Of a stretch of 64,000 nt of DNA, positions 4,141 through 44,701 are shown piece after piece. This stretch comes from a virus. Taxonomy: Duplodnaviria; Caudoviricetes. The number at the start of each line of letters is the position of its first letter. Position 1 is the first letter of the stretch. Location: IMG/VR virus record IMGVR_UViG_3300021091_000011; one strand, written 5' to 3'. The notes beneath the pieces were generated by a model. It was not told the origin of the DNA. It did no database searches and saw only the letters and a program-made list of their open reading frames with translations. The position numbers and the translations under genes were made by a program.

Positions 4141-5451
4141 TCAGGCGGGAACGTCAGGGGCTTCCCACTTACCTGAAGTGATTTCGCCTTCGGAGCCGTC
4201 CCATTCGCCGCCGAGGATAATCGCCGTACCGCCGATGCGGGCGTCTCCGTATATCTCGGCGCGACCGTACACCTTGGCGTTGCCGTATATCTCGGCGTCG
4301 TCGTACACCATGGCAAGGCCATACACCTCGGCCCTGTCGTACACCCTGCCGCTAATCACCTTGGCGCCGCCGTACACCTGGGCGTCGTCGGACACCACGG
4401 CTTTGCCGTACACCTCGGCGCCGCCGTACACCTGGGCGTCTCCGTAAACTTCGGCGTTGTCGTACACATGGGCGTTGTCGTACACAATGGCTTTGCCGTA
4501 CACCTTGGCTTCGTCCCTCACCTGGGCGCCGCCGGACACCTTGGCGTTGTCGTACACCTTGGCCTTGCCCTTCACCTTGGCGTCGTCGGACACCTTGGCG
4601 TTGCCGGACACCTCGGCGTCTTCGTACACCCGAGCGTCGCTAAACACCGAGGCTTTGCCGTACACCTCGGCGCTGCCGTACACCTTGGCTTTGCCGTACA
4701 CCTGGGCGTTGTCGTACACATGGGCGTTGTCGTACACAATGGCTTCGTCCCTCACCTGGGCGCCGCCGGACACCTTGGCGTTGTCGTACACCTTGGCCTT
4801 GCCCTTCACCTTGGCGTTGCCGGACACCTTGGCGTTGCCGGACACCTCGGCGTCTTCGGACACCTTGGCGGCGTTGAAGATATGCTTTCCAGGAATGTTG
4901 TAATTTCCCGAAGCCTTCTTGCTTGAACTCTGAAGTCTAACAAGAATCGCCTTTCTCTCGGTAGAACCGACGGGAAGGCTAGAGGCCAAGCGAATCAACG
5001 CAGAACGGTCAGAGGCGGTAAGTTTACGCGAGGCCATTTTCTTAGCTCCATCTTCAAGATTCGTGAAACCTGAAAAGTCAACCATGTAAGTAGTTCCGTT
5101 GGGAAGCACGATCACGTCGCCCACGGACATACTCGTATGTCCGGTTTTTGAAATCGCGGGCATGGTGTTAGCCTCGCCGTAAGGCGACCAAACTTCACCC
5201 TGCATCATATTGAAGATTTCGCTCAGGTTCGTCTCGTCGACGAGCCCGATGCGTGTATGCGTATTTTCCAAATCAGCGAGAACGGCAGATAAGTCCAAGC
5301 CGCGCGTGCCACGGCTGAACTTGGAAAACAGACCACGATTGTAGTAGAGGATTTGGGTGCGGCCTCGACCGTAACGATCATCACCCGTGACACCACCTGC
5401 GCCTCTCAGGGTGTTGTAACCATTAAAGCCGCCGTCCGAAAAATAGTTCAT
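4141..5451 (-). CDS. Multidomain protein: YodL-like N-domain, internal tag, long hexapeptide-repeat beta-helix
   Basis: Probable start MNYFSDGG at 5451; HTSMSVGDV motif, then SDRSALIRLASSLPVGS tag, then about 40 hexads. Confidence 0.85.
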   Translation of the reverse strand: MNYFSDGGFNGYNTLRGAGGVTGDDRYGRGRTQILYYNRGLFSKFSRGTRGLDLSAVLADLENTHTRIGLVDETNLSEIFNMMQGEVWSPYGEANTMPAISKTGHTSMSVGDVIVLPNGTTYMVDFSGFTNLEDGAKKMASRKLTASDRSALIRLASSLPVGSTERKAILVRLQSSSKKASGNYNIPGKHIFNAAKVSEDAEVSGNAKVSGNAKVKGKAKVYDNAKVSGGAQVRDEAIVYDNAHVYDNAQVYGKAKVYGSAEVYGKASVFSDARVYEDAEVSGNAKVSDDAKVKGKAKVYDNAKVSGGAQVRDEAKVYGKAIVYDNAHVYDNAEVYGDAQVYGGAEVYGKAVVSDDAQVYGGAKVISGRVYDRAEVYGLAMVYDDAEIYGNAKVYGRAEIYGDARIGGTAIILGGEWDGSEGEITSGKWEAPDVPA

Positions 5452-5520: not shown

Positions 5521-6807
5521 ATGACCGACAAGCCGATCCCTTACACGCTCGCGCAAAACCCTGCACCGAATCCGGCTAATCAAGGCCAAGCCTATCAGCA
5601 GGACAAATCGGCGTTGGTTCAACGCATCATGGCCGCTTTCAGGTCCGTGCTGCCTTCTAACTACGTCGCGGCAACCAACGGCCCTTGGTACTCGTTGCAG
5701 TTTCAAGCCATGGCCGAGCAGTTGGCCGAGATTCAGATTAACGCCAGCGAACTCGCCACGGATTGCGATTGGGATTTCACGCGCTCTGATTTTTTGTGGG
5801 ACTTGCTCGGCGGCGTCGTGTTCCCGAACTCGTCCTCGGGCATCCCTTACATAAACGGCGATGTTGACTATCGGACGTTCCTGCGTCGAATGGTCGAGTT
5901 ACTATTGCAAGGCGCGACCAAAGCCTCGATTCAAGGCGGCATCGAAGCCTTAAACCCGAACGTCACCGCCTATGTGCTCGAAAGATACCTGCAAACGCCG
6001 CCTCGTGACCCGAACGGCGCGTACACGATTGCAGATCAGTTTGCGTTAGACATTCTAATCGACGCCGGAAACTCGTTCCCCGACAATCCGGCGATCTTAC
6101 AAGCCAACATCGAACTCGTACTGCGTGCGCTAAAGCCCGCCCATGTGCTTTGTTCGTATTCGACGCTCTTTCGAGATACTTTCCCGACGCCCGAAGATAA
6201 CGGCGATGCGTTTTCGTGGGACGTTGAGCCGTATTACTACGACGACACTCGCAAGTATTGTCTCGGTGCTAAAGAAATCAGCGGCATCAGCGGCGCGTTC
6301 TTAGCGCGTAGGGATTACTTCTCGGACCCGAGCGTGTCCTTCTCGTCCATTCCGTCCGGCGCGTTGCTTATGATCGGCACGGACCAATACCGTGTTCGCA
6401 GTACGCGGGCATTGCTTACAGGTGCCGATGCGGTCGCAAGGGCGTACACGACATCGCCCTCTGGACTTTCGGGCATGGTCGTCGCTCTCAATGCGACTGA
6501 TTTATACGATGCCGCTCAAGATTGGGGCGCAAGCGCAGTCGAAGGCGAAGTGATTACGATTTTGACGGGGCCGAACTCGGGCGCGTCGTATCGACTTGAG
6601 ACGGTGCTCGGTTCCGACGGTGGGCCTTTGGGCGAGGCCGGATTGTCCGGCAATCGCGTTCGATTGGCACCAACGATCCTCGTGCTGAATCGTCGAGCGT
6701 CGGCTGCTGCGTCTGGTTTGACGTACACGGTCACGGTGGACCGTTTAGGTCAACAGCCCGTGCGTGAAGTCTTGGCCGAAGACGTCGCTATTCAGTTTTG
6801 GTTATAG
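5521..6807 (+). CDS. Putative baseplate wedge subunit (P2 gpI/T4 gp7-like)
   Basis: 428 aa; GDVDYRTFLRRMVELLLQGATKASI and LKPAH signatures typical of myovirus wedge proteins. Confidence 0.7.
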   Translation: MTDKPIPYTLAQNPAPNPANQGQAYQQDKSALVQRIMAAFRSVLPSNYVAATNGPWYSLQFQAMAEQLAEIQINASELATDCDWDFTRSDFLWDLLGGVVFPNSSSGIPYINGDVDYRTFLRRMVELLLQGATKASIQGGIEALNPNVTAYVLERYLQTPPRDPNGAYTIADQFALDILIDAGNSFPDNPAILQANIELVLRALKPAHVLCSYSTLFRDTFPTPEDNGDAFSWDVEPYYYDDTRKYCLGAKEISGISGAFLARRDYFSDPSVSFSSIPSGALLMIGTDQYRVRSTRALLTGADAVARAYTTSPSGLSGMVVALNATDLYDAAQDWGASAVEGEVITILTGPNSGASYRLETVLGSDGGPLGEAGLSGNRVRLAPTILVLNRRASAAASGLTYTVTVDRLGQQPVREVLAEDVAIQFWL

Positions 6808-39487: not shown

Positions 39488-39711
39488 TCCTCGCGCGCAA
39501 ACTCGATGGTCACGAACCTATGCCCACACTCTAAGCATTTGCGCTTACGATAGACCGAGCAAATGCCCCATTCTTCGACGAGTTCTTGCATCTTAGCGAA
39601 AGACATAAAGCGACCTTTAATAAGGTGACCTTTCTCCGTGCTCAACACGAATGTTTCGGCCTTATTGCACTTCGAGCAAATCATCGTGACCCTATCAGGC
39701 AAATCCGACAC
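39484..39711 (-). CDS. Small zinc-ribbon protein
   Basis: CSKC and RKRKCLECGHRFVTIE (NrdR-N-like zinc ribbon). Confidence 0.65.
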   Translation of the reverse strand: MSDLPDRVTMICSKCNKAETFVLSTEKGHLIKGRFMSFAKMQELVEEWGICSVYRKRKCLECGHRFVTIEFARED

Positions 39712-39730
39712 ACGATACCCTGCGAGCAGC

Positions 39731-40084
39731 GTGTATTGGATCTACGTCATAGAATCGTTAGTGCCTCGTTACGCGAATAACGGACGTAGATTGCGTGGGT
39801 TTTTCTACGTCGGCATGACGACGCACCCCAACCGCAGATTACGCCAGCACAACGGCGAAATCTTGGGCGGGGGTCGTTATACTGCGAAGCATCGACCGTG
39901 GGTGCTCCGCACCGTGTACGGACCTTATTCTTCTAGGTCCGAAGCACTCAAAGCCGAGTACGCACTCAAGCATAGTAAGCGAGGCGAGGCCCGACTGAGT
40001 TGGACGCCTAATGATTCGGTTTGGTGCCGAACAGCGTATCAAATTGCGGAAGGGGAGGGATTCGAACCCTCGGTGAGGGATTAG
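39731..40084 (+). CDS. GIY-YIG nuclease (Slx1-like)
   Basis: WIYV...FYVGMT..NRRLRQHNG..GGGRYT..RPW..EALKAE; start placed at GTG 39731. Confidence 0.85.
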   Translation: MYWIYVIESLVPRYANNGRRLRGFFYVGMTTHPNRRLRQHNGEILGGGRYTAKHRPWVLRTVYGPYSSRSEALKAEYALKHSKRGEARLSWTPNDSVWCRTAYQIAEGEGFEPSVRD

Positions 40085-40134
40085 CCCACACACGATTTCC
40101 AATCGTGCGCCTTAAACCACTCGGCCACCCTTCC
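40047..40134 (-). tRNA. trnS: tRNA-Ser(GGA)
   Basis: Full cloverleaf with long variable arm; CACGA-TTGGAAA-TCGTG; no encoded CCA. Confidence 0.95.
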
Positions 40135-40169
40135 GTATCATGCACTCTGATTTCAGAGTGCGCTCAAAA

Positions 40170-41024
40170 TCAACGCTTTACGAGCGATAACAGGGTTCTG
40201 CGCTCATTAGAACCGACAGGCATCGTAGACGCCAGCCGAATCAGAGAACTTCTCTGCGAAGAGGTCACTCTAAAAGAAGCCTGCTTGTACGGCGCAGTCC
40301 AGTCAACTGAACCGCTGCTAAGTGCCTTCACCGCAGGCTCTACGTGGCCCTTATCAGGGTCGATCACAGGCATTTCTTTGCGGTCAGGAGCCCAACTCGG
40401 CACATTGCGTTTCATTCCCTTGACGTTGTTTGCCATTATGATGATTCCGGTTTCAACTGAACCGAAGTTTTTTTCGAGAATTGCCTTGACGTCATCCGCA
40501 GAGATCGGAAACTCACCCGGAACGCCGTTGTTGGCATACCCTTCAAGCATATCCGCGACGTTCTTGGGCGTGAACTTCGAGATTGAACCCTCGCCTTTCT
40601 TGCCGTTTCTCACGTTGAACTTACCTACGGTGAGGATGTTCAATACGCGAAGAAGGTCTTTACCCGGAAGAGCCGCCTTGTAGCCTTCAACCTTGGCCGA
40701 ATTGCCGCCTGCGATGATCGCAGCCGCCCAACGATGATGACCATCCATGATGAAGTTGTCAGCAGAGATCAGCGCGTTCAAATCGCCGCCGATCTTGCCC
40801 TTAGCGAGCATACCCAAAGCCATGCCGACAGCCTTCCCTAAGACCATCGTGGTCTGGGATGGCTTCAGCGCAGCAGCAACGGAGCTAACCTTGCTTACTG
40901 AGATTTTATCCGAACTGCCGTCGCCGGACTCGCACATCAAGTGAGCGATAGACGGGTCTACTCCTGAGAGCGTTCCGGCTTCCTCAAACTGCTTCTCGAA
41001 AACACCATCTGCCTTACGCCGCAT
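40170..41024 (-). CDS. ParB/Srx-like domain protein with C-terminal cargo tag
   Basis: ISADNFIMDGHHRWAA motif; ends KQA|SFRVTSSQRSSLIRLASTMPVGSNERR. Confidence 0.85.
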   Translation of the reverse strand: MRRKADGVFEKQFEEAGTLSGVDPSIAHLMCESGDGSSDKISVSKVSSVAAALKPSQTTMVLGKAVGMALGMLAKGKIGGDLNALISADNFIMDGHHRWAAAIIAGGNSAKVEGYKAALPGKDLLRVLNILTVGKFNVRNGKKGEGSISKFTPKNVADMLEGYANNGVPGEFPISADDVKAILEKNFGSVETGIIIMANNVKGMKRNVPSWAPDRKEMPVIDPDKGHVEPAVKALSSGSVDWTAPYKQASFRVTSSQRSSLIRLASTMPVGSNERRTLLSLVKR

Positions 41025-41164
41025 AATCTACCTCTTCTAGTTAGAGCATCTCGTAACGGCTGATAGATAAATGTGATAACGGCGATTTCACACCAAAGAT
41101 TTCTTGATCTTACCTTCCAAAAACCCCTATGCCTTTTTTACAACCCTCACGGGCAAAAGGCTTA

Positions 41165-41287
41165 CGCCGAAGGGGAAGACCGACGCCACCTGAAACTGCG
41201 TCGTGTGAACACGCAAGACCCGACAGACGCAGTTACTACCTGCCGATCAGGACGGAGGTTGGATTTCCGGGAGGAGGCAGTCGGGCC
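41165..41287 (-). ncRNA. Candidate pseudoknotted structured RNA
   Basis: Crossing helices GGCCCGAC/GUCGGGUC and AACUGCGUC/GACGCAGUU plus inner hairpins; G-U pair favours the minus strand. Confidence 0.35.
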
Positions 41288-41446
41288 TCATTCTGAGGTT
41301 TCATCAATCGGCTCTTGCTCGTTCTTCTTGGAATCGGAAGAACCGCAGGAAGGGCAGACTCGCGCCTGCTTACCTGATTTTTTGATGATCGTGCGGTATT
41401 TAGTCCCACACGCAGAACAAGTGACTGACACTACGGCTTTACCCAT
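41288..41446 (-). CDS. Small zinc-ribbon protein
   Basis: MGKAVVSVTCSACG...VCPSCGS. Confidence 0.7.
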   Translation of the reverse strand: MGKAVVSVTCSACGTKYRTIIKKSGKQARVCPSCGSSDSKKNEQEPIDETSE

Positions 41447-41473
41447 ATCGTAACATACCAAACAAAATGAAAA

Positions 41474-41536
41474 TAGTCCTTGTCGGACTTGAACCAGCAC
41501 TTCCTCGCGGGAATCTGCCTGTTTCGCCAAGAGGCC
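41474..41536 (-). pseudogene. Highly degenerate tRNA-like remnant lacking the anticodon arm
   Basis: TGGCGAAACAGGCAGA D-arm-like, CCGCGAGG variable-arm-like and GGTTCAAGTCC T-loop; weak acceptor stem. Confidence 0.35.
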
Positions 41537-41540
41537 ATCG

Positions 41541-41612
41541 TGGGTCGTTTGGGATTCGAACCCAAAACCAGCGGATTAAAAGTCCGATGCGCTACCGTTG
41601 CGCCAACGACCC
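41541..41612 (-). tRNA. trnK: tRNA-Lys(TTT)
   Basis: Cloverleaf with CGGA-CTTTTAA-TCCG; no CCA. Confidence 0.95.
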
Positions 41613-41619
41613 TAAACAT

Positions 41620-41680
41620 TGGGGAACTACCTAGATAGGCGAAATCAAAATCCGCAGTCCTGCCGTTAGACGATTCCCCA
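41620..41680 (-). pseudogene. tRNA-Gln(TTG) with deleted T-loop
   Basis: Intact acceptor, D and anticodon arms; CTAGGT-AG where CTAGGTTCGAATCCTAG is expected (9 nt missing). Confidence 0.85.
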
Positions 41681-41686
41681 TTGTAG

Positions 41687-41759
41687 TAGCCGCAGAGGGA
41701 TTCGAACCCCCGACCGTCGCTATGTAAAAGCGATGCTCTACCAACTGCGCTATGCGGCT
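41687..41759 (-). tRNA. trnV: tRNA-Val(TAC)
   Basis: TCGCT-TTTACAT-AGCGA anticodon arm; no CCA. Confidence 0.92.
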
Positions 41760-41766
41760 ATGTTTG

Positions 41767-42076
41767 TACCCGAAGTCGGATTCGAACCGACACGCCCTTG
41801 CGAGCGGAGGATTTTCTTACCACTATGGTTTTCACCACCAAATCACGTTGTTTGTGGTCTGGACTTTGCCTTCACCCTCGCCATCTAGCCTCGGCTAGAT
41901 TCGTTAGGGCGGCTACCGTCAAGTCTCTACACCTTCCCCATTTATCATGGGGCTTGGCTCGGCGTTGGGTCGCTTTCGCAGGCCGTTCACCGAATTTGGC
42001 AGCATTCACTCAAGGGGCTTTCCCCCTTGGTGCTCAATCAATAAGTCCTCTGTGGCTACCCTTTCACCATTCGGGC
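41767..42076 (-). tRNA. trnL: tRNA-Leu(TAA) interrupted by a group I intron (exons 42043-42076 and 41767-41815)
   Basis: Exon 1 ends GAGGACTT and exon 2 starts AAAATCCTC; the spliced arm is GAGGA-CTTAAAA-TCCTC. Confidence 0.93.
41816..42042 (-). ncRNA. Group I intron (IC3, trnL-UAA type), 227 nt, no ORF
   Basis: Follows U, ends in G; P (AAATTCGG), Q (CGCCGAGCCAA), R (GTAGAGACTTGACGG) and S (AAGGCAAAGTCC) elements. Confidence 0.92.
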
Positions 42077-42085
42077 AATCTCAAG

Positions 42086-42158
42086 TGCCCCCAACGGGAT
42101 TTGAACCCGTGTAACCAACGTGAAAGGCTGGCGTCCTAGGCCACTAGACGATGGGGAC
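42086..42158 (-). tRNA. trnE: tRNA-Glu(TTC)
   Basis: CCAGC-CTTTCAC-GTTGG; no CCA. Confidence 0.93.
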
Positions 42159-42162
42159 TAAA

Positions 42163-42420
42163 TCAAAGCCAATAATCAAAGATCGATTCCGCGAAATAAT
42201 CGTCCGGCTTGACCGACTCGATCTGCAAGTCACCATTCGGACTTGCATAACGCACGATGCGCTTTACCAACCAACGCAGGTAATCAGGCCCCCCTGCAAT
42301 CACCCTCGTTTCGGAAAAGCCAACGAGTGCTTGCTCAAGCCCTTCGGTTGATTGCGGTAAAAAATCTTCTAGGTGCTTTACGCCTAGCGCGGTTTTATTT
42401 TCGTGATCGAGTAGCCACAT
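42163..42420 (-). CDS. Small hypothetical protein inside the tRNA cluster
   Basis: MWLLDHENK... 85 aa fills the gap between tRNA-Arg and tRNA-Glu. Confidence 0.65.
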   Translation of the reverse strand: MWLLDHENKTALGVKHLEDFLPQSTEGLEQALVGFSETRVIAGGPDYLRWLVKRIVRYASPNGDLQIESVKPDDYFAESIFDYWL

Positions 42421-42453
42421 GGTACGGCTACTCAAAAAATCAGATAAACGCGG

Positions 42454-42526
42454 CACCACCGGAGGGAATCGAACCCCCATCGACAGGCTTAGAAGGCCCG
42501 CGCCTTATCCGTTAGACCACGGTGGC
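42454..42526 (-). tRNA. trnR: tRNA-Arg(TCT)
   Basis: CGGGC-CTTCTAA-GCCTG; followed by CCG, not CCA. Confidence 0.93.
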
Positions 42527-42532
42527 AGATAA

Positions 42533-42606
42533 TGGACCCCCTCGGGCTTGAACCGAGAACCAACCGGGTATGAGCCGGACGCGCTAACCACTTGCGCCAG
42601 AGGTCC
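42533..42606 (-). tRNA. tRNA with CAT anticodon (elongator Met or Ile2)
   Basis: CCGG-CTCATAC-CCGG; G1-C72 paired, so not an initiator. Confidence 0.9.
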
Positions 42607-42611
42607 AAAAG

Positions 42612-42694
42612 TACGAGCAAAGGGACTTGAACCCCCACGCCCTTGCGGGCACCGGAACCTAAATCCAGCGTGTCTACCGTTCCACCATGCTCGC
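42612..42694 (-). tRNA. trnL: tRNA-Leu(TAG)
   Basis: CTGGA-TTTAGGT-TCCGG with long variable arm; no CCA. Confidence 0.95.
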
Positions 42695-42701
42695 TTATTT
42701 G

Positions 42702-42779
42702 TGGACGAGGGAGGACTCGAACCTCCGTGTGATATGCCTGATTTACAGTCAGGTGCAGTCGCCGCTGTGCCACTCGTCC
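42702..42779 (-). tRNA. trnY: tRNA-Tyr(GTA)
   Basis: CCTGA-CTGTAAA-TCAGG; variable region about 10 nt; no CCA. Confidence 0.92.
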
Positions 42780-42869
42780 AAGAGGCAGACTTCCTCTAAC
42801 TCGGTCTGCCAGCGAGTTCGGTTCCCATGGCAGGTAGAAAAGGAGAAAACCCCGCCACGGGCATCGAGA

Positions 42870-43073
42870 CTACTTGCGCTGAACGAAGTCGTACATTTCT
42901 TCGGCCAGCAAGCGAACCTGCGTGAAGGTCGGGAACGGAACTGCCAGCGGCGGGCGGTTTTCATACTGCGCCCGCGAGTTCTCGTTCTCCTGAGCCGCGT
43001 GATACTGCTCCACGAGCATATTCCGCGCCTCTTGGAGAATCCCCCAACGGATTTCGTAACCGGACTGAGACAT
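42870..43073 (-). CDS. Small hypothetical protein
   Basis: MSQSGYEIRWGILQEARNML... with AGGGAG RBS. Confidence 0.75.
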   Translation of the reverse strand: MSQSGYEIRWGILQEARNMLVEQYHAAQENENSRAQYENRPPLAVPFPTFTQVRLLAEEMYDFVQRK

Positions 43074-43094
43074 AAACCAGACTCCCTGTGTGTG

Positions 43095-43350
43095 TGGTGA
43101 AAGCAAATACCGCTGGTGTGCAACCACCTGAGATCGCTCTAGCGTCCTATAACGATCTCCCCTGCGCGGCGACAAGGACCCCGATAACGGTGAGGTAACC
43201 GGAAGGAGTTTTCGCACCCCTACAAACGCACGGATTCTCGTCCCATGACTACGCTCAAGGACTTAACGAGCCCTGAGAATCGTCCGCATATAACGTCGCG
43301 GCCCCGCCGTTTTCTACCTGACGGTACAGGTTTGAGTGGTTGCACACTCA
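43095..43350 (-). ncRNA. Candidate ~250-nt structured RNA
   Basis: Perfect 12-bp long-range helix (43116-43127 with 43336-43347) enclosing several hairpins; no credible ORF. Confidence 0.5.
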
Positions 43351-43353
43351 AGG

Positions 43354-43426
43354 CTCCGACAGCAGGACTCGAACCTGCGACCAGGCGGTTAACAGCCGCC
43401 TGCTCTACCAACTGAGCTATGTCGGA
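43354..43426 (-). tRNA. trnN: tRNA-Asn(GTT)
   Basis: GGCGG-CTGTTAA-CCGCC; followed by CCT, not CCA. Confidence 0.95.
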
Positions 43427-43429
43427 AAA

Positions 43430-44125
43430 AGCGAGGGCGTTCCACCCTCTAGAGCACGATGCCCTTACCACGGCGTCGATCCGCAGTAAGCCCCTGCGCG
43501 TACCTACGCAGAAGACTGAAAGGCTCAAGGCGGGAGCTTACGGTTATCGCTAACCTTAGACCCACTCCACTTTGCTTACCTGCGCCTAACAGGTGCTGCT
43601 GGACTTGTCACTCCAGCGGGAGGTCACTACTTTCCGTCCACCGCCATCCAACCAGAGACATTCCCTGATCGAACGCACGAACTCGGCCAGCAACGTACCC
43701 AATTCGTCCCGCCCTTTTTAACCTCGGCGTCAGGTTCCCCACCACGGTTGGACTGCTACCGTCGGTCTATTGACCGTCGCTCGGTGTCCACTTCGTCCGA
43801 ACGATCCCCGAGCACGGGGACTTACGATCACGGCTTAGAGGCCCGACGAGTTATCATCGGGCTTACCGCGACAGGCTTGTAAGCCGTAGTGAGGATAATA
43901 GGGTCTCCCGCGTCGAGACTTAGCCCGATGCGGTCGTATATTCTGCGACCTAGACCCCTAGTCGCTACATCCGTGATAATCTGAGCCAAATCCCGAACAC
44001 GGCTTCGGGGCTCAGTTCGGGTAGCAGGTCGGCACCAACCAGCCCCCGAAATCGTTTTCAATGAACGTGACGGCTTACTTTACCCAAGCCGTATTGAACG
44101 TCAACCCCTTAGTTGACGGAAACTA
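43430..44125 (-). ncRNA. Large ornate ncRNA, probably GOLLD-like
   Basis: About 690 nt, no credible ORF, packed with hairpins, between tRNAs; 3' half has GGUACGUUGCU, AGUGACCUC, GUUAGGCGCA, GUGGAGUGG, UUGAGCCUUU and GCGUAGGUAC, which I recall from GOLLD alignments (not verified by search). Confidence 0.7.
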
Positions 44126-44127
44126 AG

Positions 44128-44206
44128 CACGCGCAGGAGGAATCGAACCTCCATGCCCTTGCGGGCACCGGAAAATCCGGCGTGTCTGCCATTCCACCAT
44201 GCGCGG
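44128..44206 (-). pseudogene. Leu-type tRNA with anticodon loop collapsed to 3 nt
   Basis: Close paralog of tRNA-Leu(TAG) at 42612, but CCGGA-TTT-TCCGG (4 nt missing) and a C1/U72 mismatch. Confidence 0.85.
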
Positions 44207-44232
44207 ATAACGTGTTGGTCAAATGATTGCGC

Positions 44233-44321
44233 TTACACCATCCAAACGGTTCGGGGCGGCGAGGAAAACCGAAAAAGTGAACGACGATTTCCGGTTTTTT
44301 CGGGGCGGTCTAACCGTTTGG
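44233..44321. promoter_or_regulatory. Early promoter cassette with truncated right half; its left half faces the ncRNA/tRNA operon
   Basis: 89 bp identical to 44604-44692. Confidence 0.85.
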
Positions 44322-44330
44322 GAGGATCGT

Positions 44331-44588
44331 TCACGGCTCGTTAACGACCACCTTGTCGCCCGAAGGCGTAAGGAGGGTGACCGCCGCGATGAAGTACCCG
44401 CAGCACTCCGCGCCGCAGGACTGCTCTGCTGTCTCGACGTCGACGACTTGGTAGCCGTCGACAACGGGCGACGAGATGTTACCCTCGTCATCCTCATACT
44501 CGTAACTCTCGAAAAACGACTTGCCATCTGCCGCCCACGCGGATTCGATTTTCTTGACGATGATATCGAGGTTCTTGAGGTTGTTCAT
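44331..44588 (-). CDS. Small acidic early protein
   Basis: 85 aa, GGAAAGGA RBS, flanked by duplicated cassettes. Confidence 0.8.
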   Translation of the reverse strand: MNNLKNLDIIVKKIESAWAADGKSFFESYEYEDDEGNISSPVVDGYQVVDVETAEQSCGAECCGYFIAAVTLLTPSGDKVVVNEP

Positions 44589-44603
44589 GGTTTATCCTTT
44601 CCC

Positions 44604-44701
44604 TTACACCATCCAAACGGTTCGGGGCGGCGAGGAAAACCGAAAAAGTGAACGACGATTTCCGGTTTTTTCGGGGCGGTCTAACCGTTTGGATGGTGTA
44701 A
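44604..44701. promoter_or_regulatory. Bidirectional early promoter cassette (98 bp)
   Basis: Two back-to-back half elements between divergent genes. Confidence 0.85.

Follow-up and report, generated by a model that had tools for sequence, protein, structure and literature searches.

A large ornate RNA heading a tRNA operon of huge freshwater phages, apparently an undescribed family

What does the 700-nt gap behind the first element of a phage tRNA array encode? The window considered here, i.e., the whole analysed stretch of 64 kb, stems from an uncultured huge phage. Relatives of its capsid gene number in the hundreds in IMG/VR and occur on contigs as long as 619 kb. Its tRNA array (40046-44206) holds ten tRNA genes, every one on the minus strand according to ARAGORN and Rfam, and the gap (43427-44126) separates the array's first element, an odd tRNA at 44127-44206, from the tRNA-Asn at 43352-43426. 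A first-pass annotation had placed a GOLLD-like non-coding RNA here, between a defective tRNA and tRNA-Asn. Both neighbours are found as described, on the minus strand, and one correction is needed: the RNA itself is read from the minus strand. That is, given the reading direction of the array, it comes after the odd tRNA and before tRNA-Asn. The locus is composed as follows.

44233-44321, minus strand: repeated palindromic cassette, candidate promoter region of the operon in the window type (from sequence reading)
44127-44206, minus strand: tRNA-like element of tRNA-Leu shape with a long variable arm (ARAGORN; RF00005, 39.6 bits)
43598-44126, minus strand: conserved core of 529 nt with about 16 helices (P-a to P-m) and three pseudoknots (homologues, covariation, fold z-score)
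44023-44126, minus strand: variable 5' leader of the core (alignments, per-segment folds)
43428-43596, minus strand: optional 3' tail of 169 nt with several hairpins (absent in the relative L216 and in a contig of run X5)
43352-43426, minus strand: tRNA-Asn(GUU), adjoining the RNA on its 3' side in each of the four sequence types

Coding potential and strand of the locus

Each reading frame of 43427-44126 contains between 3 and 14 stop codons. The longer ORFs of the gap use only TTG or GTG starts and are unconserved, and no ORF is common to the homologues described below, which bears out the annotated lack of a credible ORF. With regard to folding, the minus strand of the 700 nt reaches a z-score of -5.9 versus dinucleotide shuffles compared to -2.0 for the plus strand, and the 529-nt core alone shows -4.1 on the minus strand. 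About 15% of the paired cells in conserved helices are G-U pairs (21/168 and 24/125 in the sub-alignments A4 and A6, see below). Since the opposite strand would have A-C mismatches at these positions, the fold is restricted to the minus-strand RNA.

These numbers also bear on the reading that the gap is no RNA gene at all, i.e., that it represents a DNA-level element (origin, packaging or recombination site) or a small-protein gene. The dense inverted repeats and the repeated palindromic cassette just upstream would fit a DNA element, but the G-U pairs can form in minus-strand RNA only and the plus strand folds no better than expected, while a small protein is opposed by the stops in every frame and by indels between the sequence types that are not multiples of three. 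We give this reading next to no credence. On these computational grounds, 43427-44126 is a genuine, conserved and strand-specific structured RNA. Public sequencing runs that contain the sequence are DNA runs of lake and freshwater metagenomes, with no RNA-seq among those listed.

The array contains further elements besides tRNAs. A group I intron (RF00028, 52.9 bits) is located at 41836-42052 (minus strand), 1.6 kb downstream of the RNA; in the relative L011, the tRNA-Leu(UAA) at 6472-6555 is uninterrupted. Downstream of tRNA-Asn, 42870-43073 (minus strand) is likely a small protein gene (67 aa from ATG) with 73-82% DNA identity to its counterparts in L009 and L011, and the 256 nt leading from this gene to tRNA-Asn (43096-43351) are unconserved in the L009 type.

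Homologues, covariation and architecture

Loci were gathered around the capsid gene and a 284-aa gene of the array, followed by scans for invariant motifs, and were searched with nhmmer and covariance models. Homologues of the RNA are present in L009, L011, L002/L010/L203, L214, L007 and G006/L306 as well as in L006 and L216, which cover only its 5' and its 3' part, respectively. The homologues found by nhmmer form three sequence types, namely the window, L006/L216 and the L009 type, and G006 provides a distant fourth. In every homologue the RNA sits at the head of the tRNA array and tRNA-Asn is the next gene downstream, spaced by 5-8 nt in L216 and G006. At the DNA level, the flanking genes are 75-93% identical, and the RNA of the window and that of the L009 type share about 70% identity, interspersed with invariant patches.

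We delimited the conserved unit by comparing the types. In L216, the conserved sequence ends at the hairpin GCUGGA-GUGACAAG-UCCAGC with tRNA-Asn 5 nt beyond. A contig of the freshwater run X5 joins position 43427 straight to 43597 such that 169 nt are missing, and in the L009 type about 295 nt of unrelated sequence replace the tail; besides the window, a contig of run X4 carries the tail as well. It follows that 43598-44126 is the core and 43428-43596 is optional. The approximately 690 nt proposed in the first-pass annotation are indeed free of conserved ORFs and helix-dense, but only the 529 nt of the core are conserved as a unit. Within the core, the leader (44023-44126) combines window-specific hairpins with the conserved motifs GGGUUGA and GUUCNUUGAA. 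One leader hairpin keeps its length, not its sequence, across relatives, and the leader of the L009 type is different, 52 nt longer and preceded by a TATAAT box.

Behind the leader, the core is organised into three domains (all minus strand), given here with their pseudoknots (PK) and the supporting alignments.

43895-44022: 5'-central double-pseudoknot domain with P-a, P-a2, P-b, P-c, PK1 and PK2 (A5, A8)
43998-44002 with 43971-43975: PK1, 5 bp in the window
43952-43957 with 43901-43906: PK2, 6 bp
43722-43880: middle domain with P-e enclosing P-f, further P-g, P-h, P-i, the junction CGUAGCAG and P-j with loop GACGCCG (A4)
43598-43742: 3' domain with PK3, the long hairpins P-k and P-l and the terminal hairpin P-m (A6)
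43726-43729 (P-j loop) with 43710-43713: PK3 (A6, G006)
43598-43617: P-m, terminal hairpin with the invariant loop GUGACAAG (alignment)

MAFFT misaligned some of the hairpins. We therefore tested three sub-alignments against the helices obtained from per-segment folds.

A4, middle (43722-43880): 28 pairs, 100% of cells paired, 8 pairs with double changes
A5, 5'-central (43895-44022): 32 pairs, 96.7% of cells paired, 6 pairs with double changes
A6, 3' (43592-43742): 25 pairs, 100% of cells paired, 3 pairs with double changes

Over the four pair counts (A4, A5, A6 and A8), 94-100% of the cells are paired with 3-14 double-changed pairs per domain, compared to 26-50% and 0-4 double changes in controls with slid partners; the comparison builds on about four independent sequence types, three of them close, such that much of the covariation goes back to few events and the shuffle control is not a probability. 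For the three sub-alignments, a slide of the 3' partners by 1-3 columns leaves 26-48% paired and 0-2 double changes (A4: 26-47% paired). In total, about 85 bp in about 16 helices are kept (94-100% of cells paired), many of them with compensatory changes, and RNAalifold predicts 103 pairs for the whole core of which 24 show compensatory changes. Junctions and loops are nearly invariant beside the covarying stems. Compensatory pairs in excess of controls are the general mark of a conserved structured non-coding RNA, and they are found here.

This is in accordance with the first-pass annotation, which had proposed a large, ornate non-coding RNA at the head of the tRNA operon and had named covariation among homologues as a check: A4, A5, A6 and A8 all show it. 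Among the perfect hairpins it had listed, CTGAGC/GCTCAG (P-a), GCCCGA/TCGGGC (P-f), TCCCCG/CGGGGA (P-g) and GCTGGA/TCCAGC (P-m) are conserved, while CGTCAAC/GTTGACG and ACGGCTT/AAGCCGT (44071-44093) are not kept in close relatives.

Run X4 offers a natural variant of the window RNA, i.e., a 789-nt contig over 43384-44175 with 8 substitutions and 4 indels, none of which breaks a modelled pair. The changes are confined to the leader, junctions and loops, bar a C to U change at RNA position 215 by which an A-C mismatch in P-c becomes an A-U pair. In the leader of the variant 12 nt are deleted, and the leader deletions take out the window-specific CGUCAAC/GUUGACG hairpin.

Some candidate pairings were discarded. 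A closing helix P1, in which the leader would pair with the stretch that precedes the last hairpin (8 bp in the window), was reached by 130/500, 393/500 and 387/500 shuffles and is erased by the 12-nt leader deletion of the X4 variant. No covarying long-range helix between the 5' and 3' halves of the core was found. Pairing of ACGGCUU with a distal AAGCCGU (43830-43887) competes with P-e, and we prefer the latter since it covaries in G006. With regard to kissing loops, none of the loops inspected is consistently palindromic across the types.

The most distant homologue provides an additional view on the fold. G006 is the contig of L012, its capsid protein is 97% identical, and its inverted array includes a 440-nt ORF-free stretch before tRNA-Asn that is recognised neither by nhmmer nor by the covariance model R1. 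When inspected by eye, this stretch shows the same succession of helices in almost wholly different sequence. For model R2, which was built without G006, the best match outside its training set is L306 7530-7657 (16.9 bits, E of about 0.002), which falls at the place predicted by eye. In G006, PK2 is paired at 6/6 positions and double-changed at 4/6 (GGGUCU/AGACCC to UCCCCU/AGGGGA; A8). Since a covariance model cannot encode a pseudoknot, PK2 lies outside the aligning model and its pairing is no alignment artefact. Likewise, PK1 changes from CCGUG/CACGG (5 bp) to GUGCAGG/CCUGCAC (7 bp) and PK3 from CGCC/GGCG to CAGGG/CCCUG. Overall, G006 keeps 14/16 elements in unchanged order, with less weight on the shortest ones, which were picked by eye, and its homologue folds with a z-score of -3.95. 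With respect to the capsid gene, the whole tRNA array has the opposite orientation in L012/L306 (G006), L001/L003 and L008 (capsid protein 97-99% identical), and the tRNA content of these relatives differs; G006 encodes 12 tRNAs including Pro, Thr and Ser(UGA).

BLAST, R1 and R3 were applied to ten larger contigs from relatives whose capsid proteins are 88-97% identical, and G006 is the only homologue among them. Five large relatives, among them two complete genomes of 312 and 376 kb with an 88% identical capsid protein, gave nothing convincing by R1, R3 and BLAST, and four further contigs of relatives gave no match. Since no homologue was found in complete relatives with an 88% identical capsid protein, the RNA is dispensable for the wider phage group. 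In the complete 376-kb relative, the locus L308 (G002:C1:172605-175661) shows gaps of about 650-690 nt between tRNAs at 847-1492 and 1569-2258, which could house other non-coding RNAs; models R1 and R3 have no match there.

Other matches were rejected. Those in G001 and G005 (10-13 bits) are unconvincing, the one in G005 being without a nearby tRNA. A possible second copy in the window, an R2 match at 6625-6749 (plus strand, 14.7 bits, E of about 0.01), is without P-b and was taken as chance. Records of INPHARED/GenBank phages match in tRNA-Asn only, and a 14-mer scan of the collection returned chance matches only, among the matches listed. L204-L206 and 8/10 metagenome matches are likewise due to chance, and so are all 88 matches, found in bacterial genomes of GC-rich taxa, of a motif scan over 185,579 bacterial and archaeal genomes. 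L336 and L339 fall within a 198-aa ORF, and L335 and L342 carry broken pairs. The known distribution comprises about ten freshwater metagenomic contigs from a narrow clade of huge phages.

Ends of the RNA and competing explanations

On its 5' side, the window RNA is directly abutted by the tRNA-like element (44127-44206), whose anticodon loop is shrunken (CCGGA-UUU-UCCGG) and for which ARAGORN reports a tRNA of unknown type with a four-base anticodon. The element is 76% identical to the tRNA-Leu(UAG) of the relative L002. L006 carries an element with the same odd anticodon loop (5241-5323), also abutting the RNA, and its T-arm shows a compensatory change (GGAGG/CCUCC to GGGGG/CCCCC). In this kind of element the anticodon stem closes on a loop of 3-5 nt. 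Conservation in two lineages together with this compensatory change speaks for selection on tRNA shape, not on decoding. Judged from its sequence and predicted fold, the element is a non-decoding derivative of tRNA-Leu(UAG). It probably serves as a 5' processing handle of the RNA and may stay joined to it.

The 5' side depends on the type, i.e., the window and L006 show the abutting tRNA-like element, and the L009 type shows the TATAAT box with the longer leader. In both the L009 type (4740-4790) and G006 (L306:7725-7775, minus strand), an A-run and a G-run are followed about 21-23 nt on by a -10-like box (TATAAT and TAGAAT, respectively), directly upstream of the RNA. This shared layout may represent a phage promoter type. 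On the 3' side, a terminator-like stem (43433-43449) with five U behind it closes the window tail, and the replacement tail of the L009 type begins with the T-arm-like hairpin CCUCG-UUCGAAU-CGAGG, located within a longer stem (element L009:5347-5400). ARAGORN calls no tRNA for this element and Rfam gives no match; it may be an RNase P handle.

We compared the locus with the 4227 models of Rfam 15, which include GOLLD, ROOL, OLE, RNase P, tmRNA, group I/II introns and small ribozymes. At gathering thresholds, only tRNAs and the group I intron are reported. When using permissive filters and E<=10, nothing is found within 43427-44126 (searched as part of 43400-44220 and 39500-44700) or within the homologous stretch of the relative L009 (4700-6200 searched). 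The scans thus give no match at E<=10 to GOLLD (RF01998) and ROOL (RF03087) in the window or the L009 copy, to bacterial RNase P RNA (RF00010, RF00011) including its P4 core, or to tmRNA and small ribozymes; neither do group I/II introns (RF00028, RF00029 and related) match in 43427-44126, where the flanking tRNA-like and tRNA-Asn genes are complete. Two short motifs that resemble RNase P, GCGGUAAG and AAGUCC, were seen by eye only.

A divergent member of GOLLD or ROOL would explain the genomic setting, i.e., a phage-encoded RNA beside a tRNA island, here at the head of a 10-tRNA array, as well as the attached tRNA-like piece, as in some GOLLD RNAs, and a size close to ROOL. However, both models stay silent at E<=10 even with lax filters, and the layout of GOLLD is absent as well: the core has about 530 nt without the GOLLD half-split, its central domains are the most conserved and its extreme 5' and 3' ends vary. 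We regard such membership as extremely unlikely. The GOLLD-like label of the first-pass annotation is therefore withdrawn, whereas its fallback for a failed GOLLD match, a new class, is what the evidence favours. Very unlikely, too, is a catalytic RNA for the maturation of phage tRNAs, i.e., a highly divergent RNase P-like, intron-like or self-cleaving ribozyme. The linkage to tRNA genes, the near-invariant junctions and loops beside covarying stems, a pseudoknotted core as is typical of ribozymes and the true group I intron 1.6 kb downstream in the same array would all agree with it, but the respective models (RNase P, group I/II introns, small ribozymes) find no match at E<=10, no gene is interrupted given the complete tRNA or tRNA-like genes on either side, and neither a P4-like long-range helix nor splice-site features were seen.

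Two rivals stand out, separate modules in a string on the one hand and an operon leader that acts in cis on the other. According to the former, the core would be a row of small RNA modules that fold independently, are processed apart and are co-linear only through joint inheritance. This has some weight given that all proven pairings are local and that the closing helix P1 failed its control; moreover, leader and tail behave as exchangeable modules at the two ends. Nevertheless, order and spacing of the elements are constant in four types, even in G006 with nearly every helix rewritten, the variation in presence and absence stops exactly at 43597/43598 and 44126, and no tRNA-like or other processing signal was found within the core (ARAGORN, Rfam), which makes separate modules unlikely in our view. 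A leader acting in cis as attenuator, sensor or processing scaffold would govern read-through or processing of the tRNA operon, with no function in trans. The RNA is always placed between a promoter-like region and the first tRNA, and the window copy has a terminator-like hairpin plus U-run just ahead of tRNA-Asn. Yet this terminator is part of the optional tail, which is missing in L216, the L009 type, G006 and the X5 contig. With its 530 nt and three pseudoknots, the core far exceeds any known leader or riboswitch, and no cis-regulatory family of Rfam matches. We thus consider a purely cis-acting leader quite unlikely.

Proposed role and comparison with known systems

In contrast to these alternatives, we consider it reasonably likely that the core (43598-44126, minus strand) constitutes an undescribed family of large ornate phage RNAs, which is the first product of the tRNA operon, is cut out by tRNA-processing enzymes and acts in trans. 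Judged against Rfam 15, in which it has no match, the family appears to be new; a screen of IMG/VR from 2023 lists 10,006 candidate viral RNAs, among them unnamed motifs (PMC10690425). The kind of object is already known, namely large ornate phage RNAs beside tRNA islands.

The invariable linkage to tRNA-Asn suggests that the ends of the RNA are made by tRNA-processing enzymes, and the tRNA-like 5' element, the T-arm element after the core in the L009 type and the promoter-like boxes in two types all point the same way. The RNA would be the first product of the tRNA-operon transcript and would be released by an RNase P cut at the 5' end of tRNA-Asn or, in the L009 type, at the T-arm-bearing element. 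Behind the abutting non-decoding tRNA-like element of the window type, the cut would be made by RNase Z or RNase E, while the RNA of the other types would start at its own promoter. A comparable use of tRNA folds occurs in MALAT1-mascRNA and in the tRNA-linked small RNAs of gammaherpesvirus 68, where an adjacent tRNA-like fold recruits RNase P/RNase Z and thereby defines RNA ends. This likeness concerns the mechanism only, since these systems are eukaryotic or of a eukaryotic virus and show no sequence relation, and processing in the phage is what we infer.

After release, the compact pseudoknotted core would persist as a stable trans-acting RNA during infection. It would most probably act in the manner proposed for ROOL and GOLLD, i.e., as a particle that folds or self-assembles without protein and interacts with the tRNA or translation machinery, and not by base pairing with a target. 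By analogy with these two families, a stable particle that acts in trans and is linked to tRNA or translation is the role we favour; the core sequence itself shows no pointer to a specific partner or activity. Going further, the RNA might form a third, structurally independent class of self-assembling phage RNA particles beside ROOL and GOLLD, or it might be a tRNA-operon RNA decoy against host defences that act on tRNAs or ribosomes. Either way, it would be made in stoichiometric excess, being the first product of the transcript. We put this forward as speculation, possible if on the unlikely side.

ROOL and GOLLD rank with the largest RNAs in microbiology that still lack an explanation, and RNA-only cages have recently been shown for them. 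The occurrence of an unrelated family in this niche would suggest repeated invention of such RNAs by phages for a task linked to tRNA or translation. With its modest size, clear boundaries and natural variants, the RNA described here is tractable for structure determination and for testing how general cages are.

Both families are phage or prophage RNAs that are often found near tRNA islands and form RNA-only cages (PMC12286853). ROOL and the new RNA are alike in their large size (about 0.55-0.66 kb), in an ornate fold with several pseudoknots and in their origin from phages or prophages, often next to tRNA islands; no protein partner or function is known for either (PMC12286853). In contrast, there is no covariance-model match and there are no recognisable common motifs between the two. 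ROOL forms an octameric cage, whereas the new RNA is known from sequence alone and from one narrow clade of huge freshwater phages. GOLLD is likewise phage-encoded, tRNA-adjacent and ornate, and was first seen in lake metagenomes. It often exceeds 800 nt, compared to about 530 nt of the core, and its 3' half is universally conserved with a less conserved 5' half (PMC12286853), while conservation centres on the middle of the RNA in our case. Finally, some GOLLD RNAs carry a tRNA embedded within them, whereas the tRNA-like piece of the window abuts the RNA.
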